Source: Promethearchaeota archaeon
GTDB lineage: Archaea > Asgardarchaeota > Lokiarchaeia > Sigyniarchaeales > SOKP01
Assembly (NCBI GenBank): GCA_018238625.1
Contig: JABCSY010000052.1
Coordinates: 1-28,327 of the forward strand
Length of the DNA: 28,327 nucleotides
Direction of reading: 5' to 3'
The translations under genes and the position numbers were made by a program. Within the stretch, counting starts at the first letter, position 1. Every line of letters begins with the position of its first letter. The notes below the pieces were generated by a model, which made no database searches, had not been told where the DNA came from, and was given only the letters and a program-made list of their open reading frames with translations. This document shows positions 9,087-25,284 of this stretch, in pieces.

Positions 9087-9452
9087 TCAATAATTCTTAG
9101 ATCGAATTACATCATACCATTGATTCCAAATACTTAATAATTCTGCAAACTTTTCTCTGGAAATTGAGTATTCCTTGAATTTACCTTTTTTAGAACTATG
9201 AATAAAATTATGTTTCTCCAAAATTCTAACATGATGGGAGATGGAAGGTTGATTTCTATTCAAACTTTTTTCAATTTCAGAAAGTAAACATGGTTTATTA
9301 TTTAATAGATTTAAAATTAGAAATCTATCTTCATTGCCTATGATTTCCATGCATTCTCGTAAGAACTTATAGGATGTATTGTTCTTGAAATTTTCTTTTA
9401 TATTTTTAATTTTATTCTTTGCTAGTTCTTCCATGGTTTTCTTCCTATTCAA
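9087..9452 (-). CDS. ArsR/SmtB-family winged-helix transcriptional regulator
   Basis: IGNEDRFLILNLL..PCLLSEIE..L..NQPSISHHVRILE..I...KKGK...YSI. Confidence 0.9.
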   Translation of the reverse strand: MNRKKTMEELAKNKIKNIKENFKNNTSYKFLRECMEIIGNEDRFLILNLLNNKPCLLSEIEKSLNRNQPSISHHVRILEKHNFIHSSKKGKFKEYSISREKFAELLSIWNQWYDVIRSKNY

Positions 9453-9466
9453 TTATTATTAAATAA

Positions 9467-10291
9467 TTAAGTTGAGAGATTTTTAATCCAATTCTCCCAT
9501 ATTTGTACAAATTCCGTTAATTTTGGTTTATTTAATGAGTAATAAATATACTTTCCATTTTTCCATCCTTTAACGAATCCTGTTTTCTCTAATTTCTTAA
9601 TATGATGTGAAGATGTAGATTGAGATTTACCGATAAACATCTGTATCTCATCCAATTTTAATGGTAGAGTTTTTAATATTTCTATTATTAAAAATCTATC
9701 AGGATTTGAGAGCGATTTCATCCATTCAACTAAATTGATTTTTTCACCAAAAACTTCTATTTCAAGCATTGGATTTAGGTCTTCATTTGTTTGTTCAAGA
9801 AAATTTCTTCTTTCTAAGAGATTATTAATTTGAGAGGGTAAAATATTTTTATCTGGTTGAATTAATCGTTTAATCTGTTCAAATTTTTCATTACCTTTCT
9901 TAAGTTTCTTTTTCACTTGATGATTATACATTGCGAGTTCTATTGTAGGTAGAAGATCATCTTCATTCGTGATAGGTTTTACTATGTAACCATAAGGTTC
10001 CGATAATTTGGCTCTATTTAATGTTTTTTTATCTCCATATGCAGTTATAAATATAATGGGAATATTATAGTTTGTATTAATAATTCTAGCTGTTTCAATT
10101 CCATCCATAGTTCCCGCTAGAATTATATCCATTAATACCAAATCAAGTTTTAAATTCTTGATTTTGGAAATTGCTTCTTCTCCAGAAGAAACAATAGCAA
10201 TTGGATTGTAGTTTGATTTTTTTAAAAGAACCGCTATTGCTTCAGCGGTAATTAATTCGTCTTCAACAATCATTACTTTTATTTGCGCCAT
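9467..10291 (-). CDS. Response regulator: receiver domain plus C-terminal ArsR-type wHTH
   Basis: Intact REC motifs (IVEDE, LVLMDI, IFITA, YIVKP). C-terminal LSNPDRFLII..SQSTSSHHIKKLE..KNGKYIYY. ATG 10291 preferred over 10327. Confidence 0.9.
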   Translation of the reverse strand: MAQIKVMIVEDELITAEAIAVLLKKSNYNPIAIVSSGEEAISKIKNLKLDLVLMDIILAGTMDGIETARIINTNYNIPIIFITAYGDKKTLNRAKLSEPYGYIVKPITNEDDLLPTIELAMYNHQVKKKLKKGNEKFEQIKRLIQPDKNILPSQINNLLERRNFLEQTNEDLNPMLEIEVFGEKINLVEWMKSLSNPDRFLIIEILKTLPLKLDEIQMFIGKSQSTSSHHIKKLEKTGFVKGWKNGKYIYYSLNKPKLTEFVQIWENWIKNLST

Positions 10292-10320
10292 TTTACTATT
10301 TCTTATAGTAATTTTTAAAA

Positions 10321-12609
10321 TTACCAAGTGATCATAACATGAGTTCCATTATTTTTTTCAATAGAAATCTTTCCATCCATTTGTTTGGTTATAGTGGATA
10401 TAAGTTTTAATCCTAGCGTATTTGAATTTTTATAATCTACATCTTTGGGAAATCCTATTCCATTATCATACACATCTAATAATGTTCTATTGTTTATGGT
10501 TTTTTTCAATGTAACAACAATTTTTCCGTCATTATTTTTAGAAAATGCATGTTTTAATGAGTTAGATACAAGTTCATTTATAATTAAGCCACAAGCATTG
10601 GCTTTGTCTAGACTTAAATCAATATTTTCAATGTTCAATTGTAGTTTAATCTGTTTGGAATTTGCTGAATAAACTTTAAATAGATTATTAACAAGGTTTT
10701 TTATGAATGATGAAAGACAAATCTTATTCAAGTTTTCGGAGTTGTATAACGCTTGGTGTATTAGAGCCATAACTTTAATACGACTCTGGAAATCCTTAAA
10801 AATATGGAGAACTCTTTCATCTTTTACATATTGTTCTTGTAGTACTATTAAACTTGAAATTATTTGTAAATTGTTTTTTACCCTATGATGGATTTCTTTC
10901 AGGAGTATTTCTTTTTCAGATAGGGAAGATTCCAGTAGGGATTTATTCTTTTTCTGTTCAGTTATATCAATTATATTCATATATAGAGCAGGATTTCCTT
11001 GGAGTAGAATCCTTTTTAAATATTGTCGAGTAAACAAATAATTTTCATTTTTTTTCTTCATTCGTATTTCAGATTGAAATGAAGATATATCTTCATTTAA
11101 AATTTTATTATACTTTTCAATAGTTATTTGTAAATCTTCAGGATGAATATGCTCGGTTATAGTGTTTAGATTCCAAGATAATAGTTCATTTATTGAAAAT
11201 CCTAAGATATTAGATATACCTTTGTTTGCAAAAATTATTCGTTCATTAGCAATGATAAGCGTACCCAACAAGGATTGTTCTGTGAGCATTCGATATTTTT
11301 CTTCACTTTCTCTTAGCTCTTTTTCAGTAGAATCACGAACAATAACACCTGCAAGAACATTCGCTATAGATTGTAAAAAATTGATATCATTTTTTGAAAA
11401 TATCCGATATTCTTTTGTATGAGCTCCTAAAATACCAAATGGGGTGTTTTTTCCTTGAATAATAACACTCATTCCGCTAATAACATCATGATCCGCAAGA
11501 AGTTTTGGGGCATGAAATCTAGTTTCAGTTTTTAAGTTTTCCGCAATTACTGGAGTAGTTTTTAGTAATGTAAAACCCGCTTGCGAATTTATATTATTTT
11601 CAACAGTGGCATTTCCAACTAATCCTTTATGCCAACCAACTCCTGCCAGTAATTTTAAAGATTTCTTATCAGGAAGAATTTCAAGTATTTTCGTAAACTC
11701 AACATCCAATATTTTTGCAAGTAAAGATGTTGCATATTTAAATAAGTTATCAATTTTTTTTTCAGTAATAGTTTCCAAGCCAAATTTGGCAATCAAAGCT
11801 TGTCTATGGATATGATCTTCAATGCACTGTTGGATTTCCATGTTTTCCGTTAAATCATGGGAAACACAGAGAATTCCTATAATTGTGTTTTGATCATTAA
11901 AAATTGGTGCGTGATTTGAAGAAAATTGTATATAAGTTCCATTTTTTTTTTTTAATCGAATTTCAATATTTTTAACAAATGTACCTTCCAATCCTTTTTT
12001 AATTCCTTTAGTAAGAATTATTTTATCATTAGGATGAATAAATTTATAGATGCTTAAGTTAAGGGTTTCTTCTTTATTATATCCTAAAATATCATTAAAA
12101 GCATTATTAACATCAAGAATATTTGTGTTTAGATCTAATGTATAAATCATACAGTTAGAAATTTTTAGTAATGTTTGAAATTTCGTTTCAGTTAAACTTT
12201 GAGAAAAATTAAAATTTTTTAGTTTATTGAAGGAATCTGCATTTTTTATCTCTCGTTTAATAGTAGGAATTAGGCGATTTAGATTATCCTCTTTTATGTA
12301 ATCATTTATTCCAGTTTCTATCAAGGAAATCATCGCTTTTTCATCTATTTCTTTTCCAATAACAATATAGGGAATCTTTTTTTTTTTTTCTTTAATAATT
12401 CTTAATATTTCTATTCCGCATAGTGTCCATGCTTTATAGTCGGATAATATAATATCCCATGTTCTTTTAGATAACACGGAATATAAATTGATATGATTTT
12501 CGATGAATTCCAATTGCACTTTGAAGTTATTTACTTTTAACTTTTGTATTATTGGAGATACTACATCTTTAGAATCAGAAATGAATAGTATATCATATTT
12601 TTCACTCAA
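10321..12609 (-). CDS. Cytoplasmic hybrid sensor histidine kinase REC-PAS-GAF-PAS-HisKA_2-HATPase
   Basis: WDIILSDY (REC), two IHPxD PAS motifs, GAF (AGVGW..SQAGFTL..FLQSIANVLA), EIHHRVKNNLQ H-box, NELVSNSLKHAF, DNGIG, LGL. No TM segment. Confidence 0.93.
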   Translation of the reverse strand: MSEKYDILFISDSKDVVSPIIQKLKVNNFKVQLEFIENHINLYSVLSKRTWDIILSDYKAWTLCGIEILRIIKEKKKKIPYIVIGKEIDEKAMISLIETGINDYIKEDNLNRLIPTIKREIKNADSFNKLKNFNFSQSLTETKFQTLLKISNCMIYTLDLNTNILDVNNAFNDILGYNKEETLNLSIYKFIHPNDKIILTKGIKKGLEGTFVKNIEIRLKKKNGTYIQFSSNHAPIFNDQNTIIGILCVSHDLTENMEIQQCIEDHIHRQALIAKFGLETITEKKIDNLFKYATSLLAKILDVEFTKILEILPDKKSLKLLAGVGWHKGLVGNATVENNINSQAGFTLLKTTPVIAENLKTETRFHAPKLLADHDVISGMSVIIQGKNTPFGILGAHTKEYRIFSKNDINFLQSIANVLAGVIVRDSTEKELRESEEKYRMLTEQSLLGTLIIANERIIFANKGISNILGFSINELLSWNLNTITEHIHPEDLQITIEKYNKILNEDISSFQSEIRMKKKNENYLFTRQYLKRILLQGNPALYMNIIDITEQKKNKSLLESSLSEKEILLKEIHHRVKNNLQIISSLIVLQEQYVKDERVLHIFKDFQSRIKVMALIHQALYNSENLNKICLSSFIKNLVNNLFKVYSANSKQIKLQLNIENIDLSLDKANACGLIINELVSNSLKHAFSKNNDGKIVVTLKKTINNRTLLDVYDNGIGFPKDVDYKNSNTLGLKLISTITKQMDGKISIEKNNGTHVMITW

Positions 12610-13018
12610 ATTTCATGCACTACACTAAATATTCTTTTTTTTCTAATACTCTATAGAAATTCTTTAATTATAATATTGGAATTTTCATTAAAAAAATATC
12701 TGTTTATATTAACTACATCCAAACTTTCATTCTAATGTTCTTAATAATATTAAAAAAAAATGCTTTAAAATAAATCTTTTGAATATAAATCGAAATAGGT
12801 TAATATTATTAGTCCAGTAAAGGATTTTTATGGCAGTATAAATTTTAAGAATATTCTTCCATTTTTCACTGGGATTCTCTGTAATTTATCATTCTAAAAA
12901 TTTTTTCGTAAAATTTATAAATGAAAAAATGTAGAAAAACTCATATAAAAGATTTTAGATTATTATTTAAATCTTTTTGTTTCAAAAAATATATAATCCT
13001 AAAAATAGGAGAAAAAAA

Positions 13019-13504
13019 ATGGTAAAACTAACAAATGAAATGAAAGAAGGTTTACGTGTTCCTGGTAAAGGAGGCAGTTTAATTTATTTGGCAACATCAT
13101 CATTAGATGGTAAACCAAACATAGCCGCAATGCGTTATATAGATACAGTAAAAAACGATAAGCTTCTGGTTGCAGATATGTTCTTGCTTAAAACTAAAGC
13201 GAATCTTAAAGAGAATCCCGAATGCATCATAGCAATATGCCATCCAATGGACTCTGGAAGAGACTGGATCTTTAAAGGTAAAGCTGTTGATATCGAATAT
13301 GGTTATCCTCCCGAATTCGATTGGTATGGTGTTTCAGCTAAAGAAGTTTTAGATGGTTGGGGTGACTGGCATAATAAAGAACCTCCAGATGAAGTTCCTC
13401 CAGATGTCGTTTATCCTAAAGCAGCACAACGTGGAGTTGTAGTATTACATGTGGAAGAAATTTATTCTATTGAAAATGGAAAAGTAGGGGAAAAAATACA
13501 ATAA
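13019..13504 (+). CDS. Pyridoxamine-5'-phosphate-oxidase-like (flavin-binding split-barrel) protein 1
   Basis: YLATSSLDGKPN, ADMFLLKTKANLKENP, FKGKA and VEEIYS motifs. ATG 13019 follows AGGAG. Confidence 0.85.
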   Translation: MVKLTNEMKEGLRVPGKGGSLIYLATSSLDGKPNIAAMRYIDTVKNDKLLVADMFLLKTKANLKENPECIIAICHPMDSGRDWIFKGKAVDIEYGYPPEFDWYGVSAKEVLDGWGDWHNKEPPDEVPPDVVYPKAAQRGVVVLHVEEIYSIENGKVGEKIQ

Positions 13505-13517
13505 GAGGGGAAAAAAT

Positions 13518-13934
13518 ATGGCTGTAAAACTAACTGATAGAATGAAAGCTTGGATTAAAATTGGTTGTCATTTAAATGTGGCAAGTAAAACCGGGATCCC
13601 GTTTGTGACTGTATCAAGAAATATTAAATCTGTTTCTGATGATGAGGCTGTCTTTGCTTTGTCTCAAGATGAATATTCTGTGATTGAGTCAGCTTTATCT
13701 GAAAACCCTTGGGTTGCATTTGGAGTATCTCAATTAGGAGGTGTCCGTGCGTGTTATCAATTCAAAGGCAAAGGAAGTGTAGATAAAGAAGGCGAAATTT
13801 ACAATTTAAAAGTAAAAATATCTGAATTGTATTGCACCAAACCAGGATGCTATGCTGGACAAAGACTTGATACTAAACCCGCGAAAGATTGTGAAGAATG
13901 GGAGCATGGTCTTTGGAAAGATTTACCAAAATAA
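13518..13934 (+). CDS. PNPOx-like split-barrel protein 2 (divergent paralog)
   Basis: VASKTGIP, LSENPWVA, YQFKGKG and ISELYCTKPG..AG motifs. Same M(A)VKLTxxMK start as its neighbour. Confidence 0.75.
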   Translation: MAVKLTDRMKAWIKIGCHLNVASKTGIPFVTVSRNIKSVSDDEAVFALSQDEYSVIESALSENPWVAFGVSQLGGVRACYQFKGKGSVDKEGEIYNLKVKISELYCTKPGCYAGQRLDTKPAKDCEEWEHGLWKDLPK

Positions 13935-13956
13935 TAAACTTATAAATAAAACATAA

Positions 13957-13967
13957 TTTTTTTTTTT
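13957..13967 (+). terminator. Archaeal-type oligo-T terminator candidate after the split-barrel pair
   Basis: Run of 11 T starting 23 bp after the stop at 13934. Confidence 0.4.
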
Positions 13968-14034
13968 GAATTTAATGTATAATTAAAAATGAAATTTTAT
14001 TAGATAATAAAAATCAAACGATCACACAAACATA

Positions 14035-14352
14035 ATGAATGAAATTAATTCTGAAGAAAATATTGAAGAGAAAAAAATAATTAAGAAGAAACCAAAAAAA
14101 ACTCCGAAGCAATTTCCGTGGTTTATGCCCTTTATGTGTGATGGGTGTGGTGATTGCGTTGAAGCTTGTCCACAATCCGGCATTAAATTATTGGGTCTTG
14201 ACAGAAAGGTTCCATGTGCTTGGCTTATTTATCCGGATTATTGTATTGGATGTGGTAAATGTGCAGACGCTTGTCAATGCTCAGCAGTTCAAATGACTGC
14301 GTATGTAGAAAAAGCTATTGAAAGGTATAAAACTAAAAAGCCTTTCCAATAA
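14035..14352 (+). CDS. 2x[4Fe-4S] ferredoxin
   Basis: CDGCGDCVEACP and CIGCGKCADAC motifs. Confidence 0.9.
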   Translation: MNEINSEENIEEKKIIKKKPKKTPKQFPWFMPFMCDGCGDCVEACPQSGIKLLGLDRKVPCAWLIYPDYCIGCGKCADACQCSAVQMTAYVEKAIERYKTKKPFQ

Positions 14353-14404
14353 AGTTTAACAAAATAAATATATTTTAAAAAGAAAATAAAAGAGGAAATT
14401 AAAA

Positions 14405-15469
14405 ATGGTATTTGACTTAAGAAGATGCGATTTTTCAAAATGTAAGGGAGAATGTCTTGCGAGGTGTTTGTTCGTTGATTACGATGAAGATCAAGCTAAA
14501 GCAGATATGGCTAAATTGATACATCTACAACCTGCAGATATACTTGCTAAATGTGTAACCTGTTATGCGTGTAATGAATTTTGCCCCCAAGGAGCAAATC
14601 CATGGGATTTAATTAATCAAATGCAAGAAAAAACGGGTCTATATTTATATCCAGAAGAAGCTAAAAAAACTGCATTAGGGTGGGCGAAAAAAGAGGATAA
14701 GATTATTAAAGGAGATCTTGGTAAACCTGCATTGTCTATAGGAGGTTTTGCTGATGCTCTTCCATATGATAAAGTGTTTAAAGGAAAATTATTTGAGGGC
14801 ATCTCTTTAATAATGGGAGGGTCATACGCTTGTAGAGCACCTGAAACCCATATGTGCGATGCCAATTCGTGCATAGATAATCTACCTTCACTAATTAAAA
14901 AACTAACAGATACAGGTTATAAAGAGATAATTTTCTACCATGATGCCTGTTATGGTTTTGTAACATCGGAAGCATTAGCAATGATGATTGAAGTTCCTTT
15001 TAAACCTATTCATATTATGGAATACATTAGAAACTGGCTCCGTGATAATAAAGATCTTATTACGCCACTGAATATGAAAATCGCATATCAACGACCTTGT
15101 ACTTCAAGATATAACCCCCATGGAGAGCTTAAAGAAGATTTATATGATTGGATGGAACAGACTTTTGAATTACTTGGTTGTGAGCTTGTAGAACGAAAGT
15201 ATCAAAAGGAGAACTCTATGTGCTGTTGTTCTGGAATTTTTCCAACCCAGAAAAAGAGGGCAATGGGGTATGTCAAACAAAATCTTCAGGATGCTAAAGA
15301 TGCCGGAGCGGAAGCTTATGTAACATTTTGTCCAATCTGCACTGCTGTAATGCGAAATACAGCTAAAAATATGGAAATGACACCTTACTATATAGTTATG
15401 CTAGTACAGAAAGCTCTTGGAGAAGAATTGCCGATAGGTGGCGCTGGAATTGGTATACCAGTTCATTAA
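14405..15469 (+). CDS. Fe-S oxidoreductase, ferredoxin plus CCG-domain protein (HdrD/GlpC-like)
   Basis: N-terminal CKGECLARC and CVTCYACNEFCP. CCG-type YQRPC..MCCCSG..FCPIC. The first CCG domain is degenerate. Confidence 0.82.
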   Translation: MVFDLRRCDFSKCKGECLARCLFVDYDEDQAKADMAKLIHLQPADILAKCVTCYACNEFCPQGANPWDLINQMQEKTGLYLYPEEAKKTALGWAKKEDKIIKGDLGKPALSIGGFADALPYDKVFKGKLFEGISLIMGGSYACRAPETHMCDANSCIDNLPSLIKKLTDTGYKEIIFYHDACYGFVTSEALAMMIEVPFKPIHIMEYIRNWLRDNKDLITPLNMKIAYQRPCTSRYNPHGELKEDLYDWMEQTFELLGCELVERKYQKENSMCCCSGIFPTQKKRAMGYVKQNLQDAKDAGAEAYVTFCPICTAVMRNTAKNMEMTPYYIVMLVQKALGEELPIGGAGIGIPVH

Positions 15470-15507
15470 AAATTATTATACAATTTTTTTTATATAGGTG
15501 AATATTA

Positions 15508-16254
15508 TTGAAAGTTTTGATTAGTATCCGTTCATTAGAAGAGTTAATCCCTACTATTGATGGAGGAGCTGACATAATCGATTTGAAAAATCCTAGTGAA
15601 GGTTCACTTGGTGCTGCTTTTCCTTGGTTGATTAAGGAAATTAGAAATTTTGGTAATGACTTTACTTTGAGTGTTGCTATTGGAGATATGCCCAACTTGC
15701 CAGGGACTGCAGCACTTGCTTCTTCTGGTGCAGCAGCTTGTGGTGCAGATATTGTTAAAGTAGGCCTCTATGGTCCTCGTTCTTTAAAGGAAGGAGCTAG
15801 ATTATTAAAAAGCGTAGTAAAAGCAGTAAAAGATATTAAACAAAATATTCTAGTTGTTGGAGCAGGTTACGCTGATTTCAAATTTTTTAATGGAATTGAT
15901 TCAATGGATATTCCTTCGATATGTAATGCAGCTGGAGCAGACATAGCAATGTTAGATACTTATTCAAAAACGGGTCAAAAATTATTCGATTTCATAGATT
16001 CTAAAAAATTAAGAAAATTTGTTATTAAATCTCACGAAAATAACTTATTAGCAGCTTTAGCTGGTTCACTCGAGCTAAAAGATATAAAAAAAATCGATAA
16101 TTTAGGGGCAGATATTATCGGATTCAGAGGTGCTGCTTGTAGTGGATCCGATAGGAAAAATGGAGTTGTAGAAATCAATAGGGTAAAAAAAATTATAGAA
16201 ATCTCACAAAATCTAAATAACAATGATAAAATTTTAAGATCTGCTACAATGTAA
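15508..16254 (+). CDS. mfnB: (5-formylfuran-3-yl)methyl phosphate (4-HFC-P) synthase
   Basis: GGADIIDLKNPSEGSLGA, SVAIGDMP..PGTAALA, VKVGL, MLDT..K, ALAGSL and DIIGFRGAAC are characteristic DUF556/MfnB motifs, and the Schiff-base lysines are retained. Confidence 0.92.
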   Translation: MKVLISIRSLEELIPTIDGGADIIDLKNPSEGSLGAAFPWLIKEIRNFGNDFTLSVAIGDMPNLPGTAALASSGAAACGADIVKVGLYGPRSLKEGARLLKSVVKAVKDIKQNILVVGAGYADFKFFNGIDSMDIPSICNAAGADIAMLDTYSKTGQKLFDFIDSKKLRKFVIKSHENNLLAALAGSLELKDIKKIDNLGADIIGFRGAACSGSDRKNGVVEINRVKKIIEISQNLNNNDKILRSATM

Positions 16255-16326
16255 TAAAATTTTGTTAAGAAAATATAATATTATAGAAAAATGAATTATA
16301 AACTTACATAAATTGAGATAAAAAGT

Positions 16327-16581
16327 ATGACTAATATGAAAATTAAACATTCTCCTGAAAAATGTTATGCGTGTAAAACTTGTGAATTAATATGTTCTTT
16401 TCATCACACGAAAACTTTTCAACCATCTATTTCAAGTATTTCTGTTGAGAGAGACCATATTAATGGAATTTGGCGTTGGACCTTAATGGATACATGTGAT
16501 AAATGTCAAGGCGAAGAACAGCCCTTATGTGTAAAATTTTGTTTTTATAATGCAATTTCGTTTGAGGAGGTTGATGATTAA
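16327..16581 (+). CDS. Small Fe-S protein, AOR-associated ferredoxin-like subunit
   Basis: CYACKTCELICSFHH and CDKC..PLCVKFC motifs. Ends 1 bp before the AOR start. Confidence 0.82.
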   Translation: MTNMKIKHSPEKCYACKTCELICSFHHTKTFQPSISSISVERDHINGIWRWTLMDTCDKCQGEEQPLCVKFCFYNAISFEEVDD

Positions 16582-16582
16582 A

Positions 16583-18502
16583 ATGAATGAATTTAATATC
16601 CGCGGGGGAATCACGGGAAAAATACTTAGAATAAATTTAAGTGATGAAACCGTAAGTGTAGAAGATAACGAATACGCAAAAAGATGGATTGGGGGGAGGG
16701 CTCTAAGTAGTTGGATACTTCTAAATGAACTAGAATCCAACGTAAAATGGGATGATCCAGAAAATTATCTTATTTTTGGCACAGGTGCCCTTGTAGGAAC
16801 GCTTACTCCAGCAGCATGCCGGATGAATATTGATACTTTAAATGTTTTCAATAATGGCAAGGGATCATCCAATTTTGGTGGACACTTCAGCCCTGAGATG
16901 AAGTTTGCTGGTTTTGATCAAGTTATAATTAGTGGAAAAGCAGAAAAACCCATATATCTCTTTATAGAGGATGGAAAAGCTGAAATACGGGATGCTGGTC
17001 ATTTATGGGGTAAAAACACATTTGAAACAGAAGAACTCCTTAAAACCGAACTAAATGATAATAAAATTGAAGTTGCCTCAATAGGACCCGCTGGAGAGAA
17101 TCTTGTTCGTGGATCTGCTATCATCATAGATTGTGGTCGAGCAGCTGGAGGGTCAGGTGTTGGATGTGTAATGGGAGATAAAAAAATAAAATCAATCGTT
17201 GTTCGAGGACATAAAGAGGTAAAGGTTGCTTACCCTGAGAAATTTATTGAACGGGTATATGAAACATATCAGAAAATAATGAAACGCCCTACAGCTAAAT
17301 TATTTAGAAGAAGAACGCTCGCAGGATTAGTATATAACGATTCTGAACAATTCGATGAACTTTGGGAGATGATGCATACCGTCAGAAATTCCCAAGATGT
17401 CCATTGGTCTCGTGAAAAAAGAACAAGAATGATGGGTAAAAATGGCGTTGGAAGGTTTTTCAAAAAAATTCAAGCGTGTTATGCTTGTCCAGTGGGGTGC
17501 CAGCCATATTCAGAAATTGAGGAAGGAAGATATAAAGGTACTAAGGGTTTAGGATATTGGATAAATTCTGTAATGTGGTCAGGTAAAATGGATATTTCTG
17601 ATCCAGAAGCATCATTGAAATACCATATTCGTGCCAACCAGTTAGGTTTGGATGGGGATAATTCTTCTGTCGTGATGGCATGGGCATTTGAGGCATATGA
17701 GAAAGGATTGTTAACGAAAGACGAAACTGATAATCTAGAATTAATATGGGGAAATGTAGATGCAATGATGGAATTACAAGAAAAAGTAGCTTACCGCAAA
17801 GGTTTTGGAGATTTTCTCGCAGATGGCGTGGTTGAGGCAGCAAAAAAGCTTGGAAAAGGCTCAGAAAGATTTGCTATTCACCAAAAAAACCAAGACACTC
17901 TTGATCCTTATAGACTTGCGAAGGGTTGGTCTTTAGCATGTGCAACATCACCTGTAGCAGGACGTCATATGAGAGGTAGTATCAATCTCCCTATCGCATT
18001 TGGTCCTAAAGGAGTTAAATTTAATCCTTACTCTTATGAAGACCAGCCACCAATCGTATTCTGGGAATTAATTTCAAAAGAAATCGAAGATATCATAGGA
18101 ATTTGCGTCTATGTTGGAACATGGTCCGGTGTATACGCGCTTGAACGGCCTGATTACGTTGACTTAACTAATTTAGCGCTTGGAACTAACTTAAATGAAG
18201 AAGAATTCACGTTACTTGGACAGAAATCATATAACTTAGAAAAAGCGTTCAATACTTTACATGTGGGATTCACACGTAAGGATGATTTACCACATCGGAG
18301 ATTCTTTGAAGATCCAATCCAATCTGGACCCCATAAAGGTGAAAAATTAGATATTACTAAGTATAATTCAATGCTGGATAAATTTTATGAACTTCATGGT
18401 TGGGACAAAAAAACGGGATGGCAAACCCGTGAAACTTTAGAAAAATTAGGATTAGATGATGTAGCGGAAAAATTAGCCAAAGCGGGACGCTTAATTGAAT
18501 AA
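16583..18502 (+). CDS. aor: Tungsten-containing aldehyde:ferredoxin oxidoreductase (AOR/WOR family), atypical clade
   Basis: GKILRINLS, SNFGGHF..EMKFAGFD, SIGPAGENLVR, GCVMGDKKIK, CYACPVGC, LGLD, LADGV, GIC and FYELHGWD motifs. ATG 16583 preferred over 16550. Confidence 0.93.
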   Translation: MNEFNIRGGITGKILRINLSDETVSVEDNEYAKRWIGGRALSSWILLNELESNVKWDDPENYLIFGTGALVGTLTPAACRMNIDTLNVFNNGKGSSNFGGHFSPEMKFAGFDQVIISGKAEKPIYLFIEDGKAEIRDAGHLWGKNTFETEELLKTELNDNKIEVASIGPAGENLVRGSAIIIDCGRAAGGSGVGCVMGDKKIKSIVVRGHKEVKVAYPEKFIERVYETYQKIMKRPTAKLFRRRTLAGLVYNDSEQFDELWEMMHTVRNSQDVHWSREKRTRMMGKNGVGRFFKKIQACYACPVGCQPYSEIEEGRYKGTKGLGYWINSVMWSGKMDISDPEASLKYHIRANQLGLDGDNSSVVMAWAFEAYEKGLLTKDETDNLELIWGNVDAMMELQEKVAYRKGFGDFLADGVVEAAKKLGKGSERFAIHQKNQDTLDPYRLAKGWSLACATSPVAGRHMRGSINLPIAFGPKGVKFNPYSYEDQPPIVFWELISKEIEDIIGICVYVGTWSGVYALERPDYVDLTNLALGTNLNEEEFTLLGQKSYNLEKAFNTLHVGFTRKDDLPHRRFFEDPIQSGPHKGEKLDITKYNSMLDKFYELHGWDKKTGWQTRETLEKLGLDDVAEKLAKAGRLIE

Positions 18503-21817: not shown

Positions 21818-22114
21818 ATGGTAGAGACTAAAGAAAATATCCTCAAAACGCTTAATCGGTTAAAAAATGAAATCGCAACAGATTACAAGGTAAAAAAAAT
21901 TGGACTCTTTGGCTCATATGTCAAACATAAGCAAGATGATTCAAGTGATATAGACATTCTAGTTGATTTTGAAGATGGCGCTGACCTAATTCACTTCATT
22001 GGTCTTTCGCGCTATTTAGAAGAAATCTTTAAAACAAAAGTCGATGTTGTGTCAAAATCTAGTCTGAAAGAGGAACTTAAACAAAATATCCTTCAAGAGG
22101 TTATCTATGAGTGA
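21818..22114 (+). CDS. mntA: Minimal nucleotidyltransferase antitoxin (MNT)
   Basis: LFGSY..SDIDILVDF and KVDVV motifs. Overlaps the downstream HEPN gene. Confidence 0.9.
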   Translation: MVETKENILKTLNRLKNEIATDYKVKKIGLFGSYVKHKQDDSSDIDILVDFEDGADLIHFIGLSRYLEEIFKTKVDVVSKSSLKEELKQNILQEVIYE

Positions 22115-22439
22115 AAAATCATTTGTTTACTTAAGAGATATTAAAAACGCAATAAATAGTATCGAATTATTTATTAAAAACATGACCTTTCCTCAATTCC
22201 AAAGTGACGACAAAACATCCAGTGCGGTAATTCGTAAGTTTGAAATAATTGGAGAAGCAAGCAAAAACATTCCTAAATCCATCAGAGAAAAACATTCTCA
22301 TATTCCCTGGAAAGATATTGCTGGCATGAGAGATAGGTTAATCCACGCTTATTCTGAAGTTGATCTAAAGCTAGTTTGGATGACAATTAAACAAAGATTA
22401 CCTGAATTAAAGAGTGTAATTGAGGAAATACTAAGATAA
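22107..22439 (+). CDS. hepT: HEPN/DUF86 ribonuclease toxin
   Basis: EIIGEASK, IPWKDIAGMRDRLIHAY (Rx4HxY motif). Confidence 0.92.
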   Translation: MSEKSFVYLRDIKNAINSIELFIKNMTFPQFQSDDKTSSAVIRKFEIIGEASKNIPKSIREKHSHIPWKDIAGMRDRLIHAYSEVDLKLVWMTIKQRLPELKSVIEEILR

Positions 22440-22494
22440 GACAATTTTAGGTAGATTAATCATATTTTTTAATTGTGGTTGATTGAAATTATTC

Positions 22495-25284
22495 ATGCCT
22501 AAGCGTAAAATCCAGCAAGTTTTTCAAGAAAAAAATAAACTCAAAAAAAAGTGGGAAAACAGCTGGCTCAATTTCTTGAAAAATGAGACTTATTTAACTT
22601 TTATCGAAAAAGATCAATTTATTACAGAATTGGACCATTTACTCAAGTATCCGCGAATAAATTGGTTTCATTTAAAGGATTTCCTTAAGGTAAGAAAACG
22701 TAAAAAAGAGCTGCGTTACGCAAAACATAAAACAATAGAATATAACAAAGAATTTATTGCTCGGCGTTTAAAAGATCACGATTCCTTCTTCGAAGGTACA
22801 GATGACGGTTTAAAGTATCCTCTTGATATTGATCAAAGAATAGCAATTATTAGAGACGATAAACACAATCTTGTCGTTGCTGGCGCTGGCTCAGGAAAAA
22901 CTAGCGTACTCTCGTCTAGAATTGCTTATTTAATTAGACGAAAAGATAAAATTAACAGCGAGAGAATTCTTGCACTGGCTTTCACAAGGGTGGCGGCGCA
23001 AGAAATGAGAGAAAGGATAAAAAAGAACTACAACATTGACATCGATATTTACACGTTTCACGCATTAGGAAGAAAAATCATACGAGATGAGACGGGTAAG
23101 AAACCCAGATTAATATTTGAACAAAAATTCGACGCTAATCAGTACAAACTAATCAAAAACCTATTTGGAGAAGCGCTAAAAGAAAAAAAATATCAACAAT
23201 TACTTATTGAATATTTGGCTTACTATAGCGAGCAAGAAGTGGACGAAACTTCTTTTGCTGACAAGGAGGAATATTACAAATACATGGAAAACAAAAAGTA
23301 CTCGACCATAAACGATATAGAAGTAAAATCTGTAGCTGAGCGAGACATAGGCAACTTCCTATTCTTACATAATATTAAATTTAAATACGAACCACTTGTA
23401 GAATGGGTGGATAAAAGTGAGGAAGAGAAAGATGAAGATGAATTCGAAAAAGAAAATGATATTGACGAAAAGGAATATCATCCGGATTTCTTTTTACCTG
23501 ATTTCGACATTTACATCGAACATTGGGGCCTTAACGAAAATATGGAAGTCGCACCGTGGTTTTCGCAATCTTCGGAAGAATACTTGGAAGTTAGAAAGTG
23601 GAAATTATCGCAATTTGAGAAGCATGATAAAATACTTGTAGAAACATGGGATTACGAGAGGAGACGCGACGAATTAATTCCTAATTTGAAAAAGAAACTA
23701 CTTGACGTTAATCCCAAAATTGAGTTTATACCATTGTCCTACGAGGAATTGGTCGGAAAAACTCACCAATTTAAAGAAAAAAGAGACCAGTTGGTAAATT
23801 TAATCGCCAACTTCATTAAAATAGCTAAATCCAACTTCTACAACGAAAAAGACATCGAAAAAAAATTAGAAACTATAAAGTACAAGAAAAAACAAAGGCT
23901 ATTTGGCTACATCGCCCTTGAAGTCTTTAAAAGGTATCAAAACTATTTGAAAACCGAAGATAAAATCGATTTTAGCGACATGATAAACCACGCCGTAGAG
24001 TTCGTTAAAAATCGGCCTGAAAAATATCATAACATGTACGACCACATTCTCGTAGACGAATTTCAGGATATCTCGTACCAAAGATTACAATTAATAAAAG
24101 GGATCGTTAACGAGAACTCGCGTACAAAATTGTTCTGCGTGGGCGACGATTGGCAAAGCATATATCAATTTACCGGGAGCGATGTCCGCTTTTTTACGAA
24201 TTTTGAAGAATTTTTCGACAAACCCGAAATTAGCTACCTCAAAACAAATTACCGCAGCTCATTTAACATCGTTGACGTGTCTAATTACCTCATTTCAAAG
24301 AATAAAGATCAGATTAAGAAAATTATTCAAACTAATAACACGCAAGGACAACAACCAATATTTTTCGAATTATCTAAAAGATTTATTTACGGAAAAACTC
24401 AAATACCGCACGTGTACGAATTAATAAAAAAACTATTGGCTGAAGGCGTAAAACCCGACGAGATTATGGTCTTATCGCGCTTCAATAACTTTTTAAAAGA
24501 ATTAGAAATTTATTGCGGGGCAAGAGAAATTCCAACAGAATATAAAGCGGGAGGCGTGAGATTTTATAGCGCTCATGGATCTAAAGGTACTGAATGCAAA
24601 CACGTCATCCTCACCGGCGTCACATCGGGATTGTACGGATTTCCGTGCGAAATTCAAGATTCTTCCGTAATGGAAGTAGCTAAACGATTTAAAACCAAAA
24701 AATACATCGAAGAAGAAAGAAGGCTCTTTTACGTCGCTCTTACTCGAAGCAAAAAGTTTCTTTATATTTACAGCATCGAAGATAACAACTCAATCTTTAT
24801 CGACGAAATAAAAACTCATTTAATGAAATTTCACATCGATTCCTTACCAAGATGGGAAGAACTCGATTCAGAGGTCATATCTAATCTCTTAAACGAAAAG
24901 AAATTTGAAAGACCAATTATATGTCCAGAATGCGGCAAATTCCTGAAAGAACGATCTGGTAAGTATGGAAAGTTTTTAGGTTGTACCGGCTACCCCCAAT
25001 GTAAATATACATTTGACACAAGAGAAAAGTTGAAAGTATCTGAACTTCCTAATACCTGCCCAAAGTGCAAAAGGCGTTTAGTAATTAAGAAAGGAAAATA
25101 CGGCGGTTTTATAGGCTGCACCGGCTATCCTAAATGTAATTTTACTTTTAATCTTAGTAACGATATATCTATTCCTTGCCCAAAATGTGGAAAACATTTA
25201 GTAGCCCGCAGTGGAAAGTATGGCGCTTTTTTAGGGTGCTCAAACTATCCAAGTTGTAAATTTACTTTTAATTTAAGAAAATAG
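22495..25284 (+). CDS. SF1 UvrD/HelD-like DNA helicase with inserted nuclease-like domain and three C-terminal topoisomerase-type C4 zinc fingers
   Basis: AGAGSGKT, LAFT, TFH, DEFQD, VGDDWQSIY, NYRS, HGSKGTE and EERRLFYVALTR motifs. Insert S..E..IGNFL..YEP..PDF..IYIEHWG. Three CPxCG..GKYG.F.GCxxYPxC units. Confidence 0.9.
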   Translation: MPKRKIQQVFQEKNKLKKKWENSWLNFLKNETYLTFIEKDQFITELDHLLKYPRINWFHLKDFLKVRKRKKELRYAKHKTIEYNKEFIARRLKDHDSFFEGTDDGLKYPLDIDQRIAIIRDDKHNLVVAGAGSGKTSVLSSRIAYLIRRKDKINSERILALAFTRVAAQEMRERIKKNYNIDIDIYTFHALGRKIIRDETGKKPRLIFEQKFDANQYKLIKNLFGEALKEKKYQQLLIEYLAYYSEQEVDETSFADKEEYYKYMENKKYSTINDIEVKSVAERDIGNFLFLHNIKFKYEPLVEWVDKSEEEKDEDEFEKENDIDEKEYHPDFFLPDFDIYIEHWGLNENMEVAPWFSQSSEEYLEVRKWKLSQFEKHDKILVETWDYERRRDELIPNLKKKLLDVNPKIEFIPLSYEELVGKTHQFKEKRDQLVNLIANFIKIAKSNFYNEKDIEKKLETIKYKKKQRLFGYIALEVFKRYQNYLKTEDKIDFSDMINHAVEFVKNRPEKYHNMYDHILVDEFQDISYQRLQLIKGIVNENSRTKLFCVGDDWQSIYQFTGSDVRFFTNFEEFFDKPEISYLKTNYRSSFNIVDVSNYLISKNKDQIKKIIQTNNTQGQQPIFFELSKRFIYGKTQIPHVYELIKKLLAEGVKPDEIMVLSRFNNFLKELEIYCGAREIPTEYKAGGVRFYSAHGSKGTECKHVILTGVTSGLYGFPCEIQDSSVMEVAKRFKTKKYIEEERRLFYVALTRSKKFLYIYSIEDNNSIFIDEIKTHLMKFHIDSLPRWEELDSEVISNLLNEKKFERPIICPECGKFLKERSGKYGKFLGCTGYPQCKYTFDTREKLKVSELPNTCPKCKRRLVIKKGKYGGFIGCTGYPKCNFTFNLSNDISIPCPKCGKHLVARSGKYGAFLGCSNYPSCKFTFNLRK

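Follow-up and report, generated by a model that had tools for sequence, protein, structure and literature searches.

The sequence studied here is an entire contig of 28,327 nucleotides (the window; JABCSY010000052.1, C154 in our numbering) of a Promethearchaeota archaeon (Asgard, Loki-type), whose metagenome-assembled genome comprises 4.29 Mb in 201 contigs at approximately 31% G+C and is 97.9% complete and 7.6% contaminated. The window carries seven co-oriented plus-strand genes (g1 to g7, 13019-18502) in which mfnB, the gene for the synthase of the furan aldehyde 4-(hydroxymethyl)-2-furancarboxaldehyde phosphate (4-HFC-P), lies among genes for two PNPOx-like proteins, a ferredoxin, an HdrD/GlpC-like protein and an aldehyde:ferredoxin oxidoreductase (AOR) family enzyme with its short iron-sulfur (Fe-S) subunit. 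An earlier note on this DNA had described this block, and the open reading frame (ORF) coordinates and profile matches confirmed it. The conserved unit is larger, with ten genes at 9087-18502 set in variable surroundings, because a divergent trio of regulator genes recurs beside the seven-gene block. The unit recurs in 17 other genomes and is more than a chance arrangement. Our best reading is that it is an accessory redox module of low potential, connected with furan-aldehyde/methanofuran chemistry.

To define the distribution of the unit, 400 genomes of the phylum were searched. Orthologues of g4 (71-95% identity) were identified in 17 other genomes, all of the family of the window, the next paralogues being at most 47% identical. 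AOR orthologues (73-94%) were found in the same 17 genomes, plus one 62% match in a different family (G046). Block layouts were then determined by tblastn of the seven proteins on the loci of the 17 genomes. The earlier note had asked whether mfnB is linked to the AOR elsewhere too; this linkage, with the flavin/CCG genes included, held in 16 of the 17 other loci. The position of mfnB is between g4 and g6 in 15 of the 17, counting G252, where the contig ends inside mfnB and the AOR is on another contig. G006 has the block as two convergent units, one of g1, g2, g3, g4 and mfnB and one of mfnB, g6 and the AOR. Within the window the seven genes are 13-100 nt apart, and g6 overlaps or abuts g7.

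The regulator trio is encoded on the minus strand, beyond an AT-rich, low-GC intergenic region (12610-13018; GC 0.218 across 12001-13000) in which both promoters are presumed to lie. It comprises a 762-residue cytoplasmic hybrid histidine kinase with the Pfam architecture REC-PAS-GAF-HisKA_2-HATPase, divergent from the operon (10321-12609), a 286-residue response regulator with a receiver and an ArsR-type helix-turn-helix domain (9467-10327; Response_reg 76.4 bits, HTH_5 26.7 bits) and, last in the trio, a 121-residue ArsR/MarR-type winged-helix regulator (9087-9452; HTH_5 36.9 bits). Of the 15 other loci with at least 700 bp of upstream sequence, 14 have a kinase orthologue (69-86%) next to g1 and L018 has none, and response-regulator orthologues (71-89%) stand beside the cluster in 13 other loci. 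The ArsR-type regulator was seen beside the cluster in 12 of the 17 loci compared, the window among them; in the others, contig ends limit the view. No other neighbor recurs in more than three of 17 loci. Sequence identity does not follow genus, as the g4 of the window is 93% identical to that of G213, from another genus, and 72% to that of G011, from its own, which suggests lateral spread within the family. In addition, since 18 of the 135 family genomes carry the module versus 123 with mfnB (PF04476), the module cannot be a core methanofuran step. It is probably an accessory unit under sensor control.

The embedded MfnB (g5, 15508-16254, plus strand, 248 residues) matched PF04476 at 242.7 bits (cut-off 22.4) over profile positions 1-227 of 228. 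Its score against the NF002573 equivalog fell below the cut-off (266.7 versus 341 bits), and as the other copy in the genome was also below (276.5 versus 304), we attribute the miss to the lineage and not to paralogy. The protein matched MJ1099 (PDB 4rc1) at 218 bits and is 49% identical to the Methanotorris igneus enzyme. In Methanocaldococcus jannaschii numbering, it keeps Asp25, Lys27, Lys85 and Asp151, which we take to be catalytic or substrate-binding residues of MfnB. It also keeps Lys155 and Arg217, which have been named as key residues (PMC11365854). None of the six varies across the 56 MfnBs aligned (23 clade-A, 20 clade-B, six other archaeal and seven bacterial).

In an IQ-TREE phylogeny of these 56 proteins, from which the partial sequences L017 and L049 were left out, clade B (support 100/100) comprised 20 Promethearchaeota copies encoded elsewhere than in the cluster and represents the usual copy of the family. 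Clade A (support 100/99) held all 17 cluster copies together with the non-cluster copies L035/L113, L039/L040 and L045 (context mfnB-GNAT-proC, as for the clade-B copy of the host), and P0087. Two full mfnB copies within the family are essentially confined to cluster bearers. By their coordinates, the non-cluster clade-A loci belong to four genomes (G210, G259, G264, and G173) in which the clade-A mfnB is the only copy, and G006 has just its two cluster copies; FwdA is encoded by G259, G264, G173, and G006. Identity alone was rejected as a marker of cluster copies, as the non-cluster clade-A copies are 56-65% identical. In G210 (L035, 788-3472) and on a second contig of G254 (L037, 347-2987), the clade-A mfnB is divergent from a URO-D-family (methyltransferase-like) gene and upstream of a gene for a 127-residue protein without a Pfam family; L113 likewise lies beside a URO-D-like gene.

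The earlier note had suggested that MfnB is repurposed here and that a phylogeny might reveal this. The tree placed the cluster copies in clade A, which also holds the sole mfnB copies of other genomes, and repurposing is not supported at the level of the enzyme. At the thresholds used, no position was fixed differently in clade A relative to other archaeal MfnBs, which together with the kept residues led us to reject a neofunctionalized MfnB. Based on the six conserved residues and on the sole-copy clade-A MfnBs of FwdA-bearing genomes, the embedded protein is most likely a genuine synthase that still makes 4-HFC-P.

The check for a second mfnB in the host genome, and for the whereabouts of the other mfn genes, showed that g5 is an extra copy. 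The second mfnB, on C22, is 50% identical to g5 and is located among housekeeping genes (proC, a GNAT gene, RPA and archaeal pyrH), adjoining an Orf17-like gene of the HisA/F family. The other genes are dispersed: an MfnA-type tyrosine decarboxylase on C24 (431 bits), ATP-grasp homologues on C82 and C97, and, on C148, a TIGR03123 protein (284 bits), a family that we take to be MfnF, next to an MfnE-like kinase (119 bits, below the cut-off of 300). The host also encodes FwdA on C61 (765 bits, above cut-off) and two Ftr genes. A second FwdA-like gene (C140:1784-3406, minus strand, L011) scored 310 bits, below the family cut-off of 392.75. The contig of the window itself gave no match to mfnA, mfnD, mfnE, mfnF, FwdA or Ftr, for which the matches were on C24, C97, C148, C61 and C109/C100; mfnC was not searched. 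There was also no match to mcrA in this 97.9% complete genome, which ruled out a methanogen as host.

The AOR-family gene (g7, 16550-18502, plus strand; alternative starts are possible at 16574 or 16583) encodes a 650-residue pterin enzyme with matches to AFOR_N (220.7 bits) and AFOR_C (269.9 bits), and its nearest solved structure is the Pyrococcus furiosus AOR (1aor, 340 bits). The description of the block as a tungsten-oxidoreductase operon therefore stands for the enzyme family and is not borne out for the metal, as sequence cannot tell tungsten (W) from molybdenum (Mo). According to a recent survey of the AOR/tungsten-containing oxidoreductase (WOR) family, Thr243, Glu313, Tyr427 and His448 are conserved in most aldehyde-oxidizing WORs (PMC13328260). 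In g7, Glu313 and Tyr427 are both replaced by Leu in the HMMER alignment to 1aor, and by Asn and Asp, respectively, in a MAFFT alignment with the ten other AOR paralogues of the host. The motif GLGYWINS takes the place of PEYE(T/S), with no acidic residue in the 12-residue segment at Glu313, and QDTLDPYR takes the place of LPxYDPR. The equivalents of His448 and Cys494 and the C-x2-C-x3-C motif are kept; Thr243 is ambiguous. Nine of the ten other host paralogues retain E-Y-E, and the altered motifs are common to all seven aligned orthologues. Judged from these residues, g7 is not an ordinary aldehyde oxidizer. The host has 11 AOR-family genes on eleven contigs, and one other (C32:6322-7446), on a very long branch, also lacks E-Y-E.

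The short gene upstream (g6, 16327-16581, plus strand) encodes a putative Fe-S subunit of 84 residues, with a Fer4_9 match of 23.1 bits, below cut-off, and a weak YdhY-like match. Its eight Cys residues are enough for two clusters, and no twin-arginine motif was seen by eye at its N-terminus. In a metagenome scan with the AOR of G046, a g6-like gene was located directly upstream of the AOR in 73 of 80 loci, and six of the remaining seven loci begin or are cut at the AOR. A quick IQ-TREE analysis, with Shimodaira-Hasegawa-like approximate likelihood ratio test (SH-aLRT) supports only, placed ten AORs of the window's family (100) as sister to two G046-type AORs (100), with an SH-aLRT of 99. Both stand apart from all other paralogues of the host and nest in a wider clade (100), in which the motif is mostly GEG(F/W)W and thus retains a Glu. 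This wider clade of short Fe-S and AOR pairs (L139-L212) is 47-60% identical to the AOR of the window, and its recurrent neighbors are a Liv-type ATP-binding cassette (ABC) transporter, a xanthine-dehydrogenase-like Mo enzyme (MoCoBD, FAD_binding_5, Fer2_2) and an ATP-grasp_5 protein.

The G046-type loci provide a second arrangement of the module beside mfn-like genes. In L133-L135, genes ordered g4-g3-g2-g1 (43-59% identity) are divergent from g6-AOR, and there is no embedded mfnB. In L134 (13.9 kb), the AOR is followed after 100 bp, on the same strand, by an ATP-grasp_3 gene. Next come an Orf17-like gene of the HisA/F family, a preATP-grasp_3 plus ATP-grasp_3 gene (MfnD/MyfA-like) and a Hydantoinase_A (MfnF-type) gene, and then an AA_kinase (MfnE-type) gene, mfnB (46% identity) and an AdoMet_dc-like gene. 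The gene order of L164 is as in L134. We rejected the assignment as MfnD of the ATP-grasp gene that follows the AOR of G046, and call it only MfnD/MyfA-like, because its NCBIfam matches were generic ATP-grasp ones. A DDE transposase fragment (L134, 87-575, plus strand) directly flanks the module, consistent with mobility of the latter. In G046 itself, a DUF2119 protein, of a family described as conserved in archaea, is encoded between the AOR and the ATP-grasp gene (L132, 2415-3053, plus strand); L134 has no DUF2119.

The first four genes of the operon would form a flavin/Fe-S unit. The first, g1 (13019-13504, plus strand), encodes a PNPOx-like split-barrel protein of 161 residues with a PNPOx_N match of 28.8 bits, just above the cut-off of 28.1. 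Its mechanical ORF begins at 12977, and because orthologues have stop codons 5' of the MVKLT start, 13019 is the correct start. The second, g2 (13518-13934, plus strand, 138 residues), is a divergent split-barrel paralogue of g1 (29% identity over 96 residues) that had no Pfam match even at E<=5. That both genes are PNPOx-like, as the earlier note had it, was upheld for g1 by the profile and for g2 by its fold match and its likeness to g1. The language-model neighbors of both were the PNPOx family (0.95 for g2, 0.94 for g1). An AlphaFold model of g2 (predicted local distance difference test, pLDDT, 88.8) matched HupZ (7kpz, E 2.6e-5) and a putative PNPOx (2htd) in Foldseek. There were 77 PDB matches at E<=0.001, those listed all being split-barrel proteins, and the identity to solved members was 10-15%. 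The stand-alone model of g1 was poor (pLDDT 60.4). In the modeled g1-g2 complex, partner pLDDT was at least 88, the interface score (ipSAE) was 0.88 against 0.00 for the best of three controls, and at least 82% of contacts were common between runs; the ipSAE mark used is reached by 58 of 80 solved complexes and by two of 110 mismatched pairs. The two proteins are thus predicted to form a heterodimer, although the pass may reflect no more than family likeness, since PNPOx dimers have already been solved.

Close relatives of this pair occur in methanogens. The g1 protein is 71% identical to a protein of Methanoculleus bourgensis, and g2 shares 46-50% identity with its counterparts in Methanoculleus, Methanoplanus and Methanospirillum. 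Those of M. bourgensis MS2 (71% and 49%; CCJ35067.1 and CCJ35066.1, P0208 and P0154; also WP_014866044 and WP_014866043) are presumed to be adjacent from their consecutive accession numbers. The g1 protein cluster has 139 members across the Methanomicrobiales.

The other two proteins of the unit are putative electron carriers. The third gene, g3 (14035-14352, plus strand, 105 residues), encodes a 2x[4Fe-4S] ferredoxin with a Lys-rich N-terminal extension and two CxxCxxCxxxC motifs (Fer4_7, 44.7 bits). The fourth, g4 (14405-15469, plus strand, 354 residues), encodes an Fe-S protein resembling HdrD/GlpC, in which a cluster motif near the N-terminus is followed by a CCG-type domain at the C-terminus, the one CCG domain above cut-off (32.9 bits, cut-off 20.6). 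It has 19 Cys residues, one CxxCxxCxxxCP motif and the sequence CCCSG...CPIC, with CCCSG in place of CCG. It matched HdrB structures in the CCG part only (29.8 bits) and scored far below every NCBIfam equivalog cut-off. Its paralogues (35-47% identity) were rejected as a guide to function, their contexts being unrelated (sulfatase, GH2, DUF6125, and GlcD-like oxidases). On C139 (L130, 1494-9542), a single stretch holds three g4 paralogues (33-35%) along with genes for a sulfatase, a DUF6125 protein and a GH2 glycosidase. The phylum appears to reuse the HdrD-like family widely as an electron module.

Based on these observations, we favor a reading in which the kinase, response regulator and ArsR-type protein would control an operon of three parts: an additional, catalytically intact copy of 4-HFC-P synthase; a soluble pterin enzyme of the AOR family that has an altered active site and a short two-cluster Fe-S subunit; and a flavin/Fe-S unit of the putative g1/g2 heterodimer, the ferredoxin and the HdrD-like CCG protein. 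The direct substrate of both redox units would be the phosphorylated furan that MfnB produces, or close congeners of it. The substrates and directions in this scheme are all inferred, and we hold the proposal tentatively, as one somewhat more apt to fail than to hold. By analogy, 4-HFC-P, a heteroaromatic aldehyde with a CH2-O-phosphate group, would resemble pyridoxal phosphate (PLP), and 5-(aminomethyl)-3-furanmethanol phosphate (F1-P) would resemble pyridoxamine phosphate (PMP). Accepting that likeness, g1/g2 with the HdrD-like protein and ferredoxin could carry out an oxygen-independent, PNPOx-type two-electron step on a formyl, aminomethyl or hydroxymethyl group, interconverting 4-HFC-P and F1-P or the alcohol, while the AOR unit could run an aldehyde/acid couple at ferredoxin potential. 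The joint outcome would be a furan metabolite that branches from methanofuran synthesis.

Several observations weigh against this reading. Embedding just the first committed gene of the pathway would also be expected if the operon simply needs more methanofuran. The block of G179 contains all six redox genes and no mfnB, with a g4-g6 spacing of 119 bp, so that the embedded mfnB is dispensable where another mfnB exists. The absence of Glu313 and Tyr427 weakens the proposal, made in the earlier note, that the AOR oxidizes the aldehyde of 4-HFC-P. G210, whose sole mfnB is of clade A, had no FwdA match at E<=1e-100. Finally, as the two AOR lineages are sisters, the two arrangements beside mfn-like genes represent one ancestral association that has been rearranged, and not two independent origins.

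Ranked close behind, and nearly as likely as the direct action of the redox units on the MfnB product, is that the block encodes an oxidoreductase that depends on methanofuran. This might be an AOR-type enzyme whose target is the N-formyl group of formyl-methanofuran, or some other group bound to methanofuran, and mfnB, as the first committed step, would be embedded only to increase the supply of the cofactor upon induction of the operon. In itself this is unlikely, if by no means far-fetched. The module of the sister lineage adjoins a whole mfn-like set, and in methylotrophs the mfn homologues cluster with the methylofuran-using Fhc genes, as PMC8141765 describes. Close homologues of g1 and g2 are present in methanofuran-using Methanomicrobiales, FwdA and Ftr are encoded by the host, G179 manages without an embedded mfnB, and the AOR active site is unlike that of ordinary aldehyde oxidizers. 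Against this, the block has no known methanofuran-binding subunit (FwdA/C or Ftr), the host already possesses FwdA, and the wider AOR clade is found beside amino-acid-type ABC transporters and xanthine-dehydrogenase-like genes, not C1 genes.

The same sister-lineage locus could also be read as pointing to an optional redox step in methanofuran maturation, side-chain synthesis, repair or salvage, which we consider rather improbable. In L134 the AOR is followed at once by the ATP-grasp ligase gene and then by the mfnD/F/E/B-like and Orf17-like genes, and, according to PMC8141765, the enzymes adding the linker and terminal moieties of methanofuran are unidentified and Orf17, of the HisA/F family, is required for methylofuran synthesis. 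Control by a sensor kinase would, however, be unusual for cofactor synthesis.

It is more doubtful still that the unit is a general aldehyde- or stress-handling module without any furan link, in which mfnB is a passenger by descent. The loci of the family come from one origin and have probably spread laterally, one of them has lost mfnB, and the AOR family is best known, according to PMC13328260, for broad aldehyde detoxification. Against this, mfnB is retained in 16 of 17 loci even as AOR identity falls to 73%, the duplication in G006 leaves each half-operon a copy, and the rearranged module in another family again adjoins mfn genes.

Hmf-type clusters for furan catabolism comprise furoyl-CoA ligase, furoyl-CoA dehydrogenase, 5-hydroxymethylfurfural (HMF) oxidase and a UbiD/UbiX-type decarboxylase, and none of the corresponding Pfam families was present among the ten conserved genes. 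The anaerobic catabolism or detoxification of furfural/HMF that the earlier note had entertained is thus very improbable, AOR-family enzymes elsewhere being reported to oxidize furfural among many aldehydes, but a furan-forming synthase being out of place in a furan-degrading route, the ten genes including no transporter, coenzyme A (CoA) ligase or decarboxylase, and this AOR lacking the residues typical of aldehyde oxidizers.

The unit was compared with the closest known systems. Like MJ1099 (PDB 4RC1/4U9P), g5 is a full-length PF04476 protein with its key residues kept; it differs from the usual MfnB in being a second copy, of clade A and not B, in a redox operon under a two-component system. 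Like the P. furiosus AOR (1AOR), g7 has two AOR domains, the Cys ligands of a [4Fe-4S] cluster and the His448 equivalent, in contrast to its lack of Glu313 and Tyr427 equivalents. The two putative clusters of g6 differ from the four-cluster WorS of Class II WORs, and none of WOR classes I-V, as these are described in the accessible text of Putumbaka et al. 2026 (PMC13328260), has a partner set made up of a PNPOx-like pair, a ferredoxin and an HdrD-like protein. Similarly, g7 scored 244.7 bits against NF007354 (cut-off 868), and g6 has no twin-arginine translocation (Tat) motif, unlike Class V WOR/YdhV-YdhY, of which the WorS is exported according to the same text.

The BamBCDEFGHI complex of Geobacter metallireducens (PDB 4Z3W) also combines an AOR-family subunit, a small Fe-S subunit and an Hdr-like CCG protein, and this class II benzoyl-CoA reductase is the one known AOR-family member on a non-aldehyde substrate according to PMC13328260. 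However, BamB was the sixth-best solved match to g7 (224 bits, over the N-terminal two thirds), the putative flavin partners here are split-barrel proteins, and no BamE/F/G/H/I homologues and no HdrA-like or NuoEFG-like genes were found in the block. With scores that fall short and partners that are missing, we rejected both BamB-like and YdhV-like membership of g7.

In its pairing of furan-cofactor synthesis genes with cofactor-using enzymes, the arrangement resembles the "archaeal-like" C1 cluster of methylotrophs, in which the mfnB/E/F homologues Orf22/21/9, Orf17 and MyfA/B accompany fhcABCD (PMC8141765). The Orf17-like HisA/F gene recurs both in L134 and beside the second mfnB of the host, and L134 contains ATP-grasp ligases. 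As described there, the methylotroph cluster differs in having no AOR, PNPOx-like pair or HdrD-like protein (PMC8141765). Lastly, g1/g2 share with PdxH and other split-barrel flavin mononucleotide (FMN)-binding proteins the fold and the predicted dimer, with the proposed likeness of 4-HFC-P/F1-P to PLP/PMP, and differ from PdxH as a predicted heterodimer of diverged paralogues, in an anaerobe and beside Fe-S electron carriers.

The arrangement matches no described pathway that we found in the literature, as the earlier note had surmised, although the gene-neighborhood supplement of PMC13328260 (4,064 WorL proteins), which was not covered, might hold it; the text of that paper, so far as available, mentions neither Asgard, furan, heterodisulfide nor pyridoxamine. 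The unit may represent a new class of AOR-family (W/Mo-pterin) system that would act on a furan from the methanofuran pathway (4-HFC-P or F1-P, or formyl-methanofuran at its formyl group) and would combine a two-cluster subunit and a catalytic subunit devoid of the Glu and Tyr with a PNPOx-like flavin heterodimer, an HdrD-like protein and a ferredoxin. We consider this close to an even call, leaning slightly against.

Just past the variable flank of the cluster, the window contains a HEPN/MNT toxin-antitoxin pair (21818-22439, plus strand), formed by an MNT-type nucleotidyltransferase (98 residues) overlapping a HepT-like RNase (110 residues). A UvrD/REP-type helicase of 933 residues, with three Top1-type C4 zinc ribbons at its end, is encoded at 22483-25284 (plus strand).

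The core chemistry of methanofuran is regarded as settled, with MfnA-F for its synthesis and Fwd plus Ftr for its use. More than 4,000 proteins make up the AOR/WOR family, and, according to PMC13328260, just five of its 92 clades hold an enzyme of defined physiological role. The unit described here links, at the genetic level, an AOR whose active site has changed to a furan-aldehyde synthase and, in the sister lineage, to a whole mfn set. An orphan WOR clade thereby gains a concrete substrate class that can be tested. If the proposed class is real, Asgard archaea would make, under two-component control, a hitherto undescribed furan metabolite (a carboxylate or an amine) that might serve as a signal or a cofactor variant, or, alternatively, would have a second, AOR-type route at the level of formyl-methanofuran/CO2, and the g1/g2 pair common to the Methanomicrobiales would carry such chemistry into methanogens. 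If the link is one of cofactor supply only, the unit would still be a clean example of an inducible accessory redox island spreading laterally within a family.

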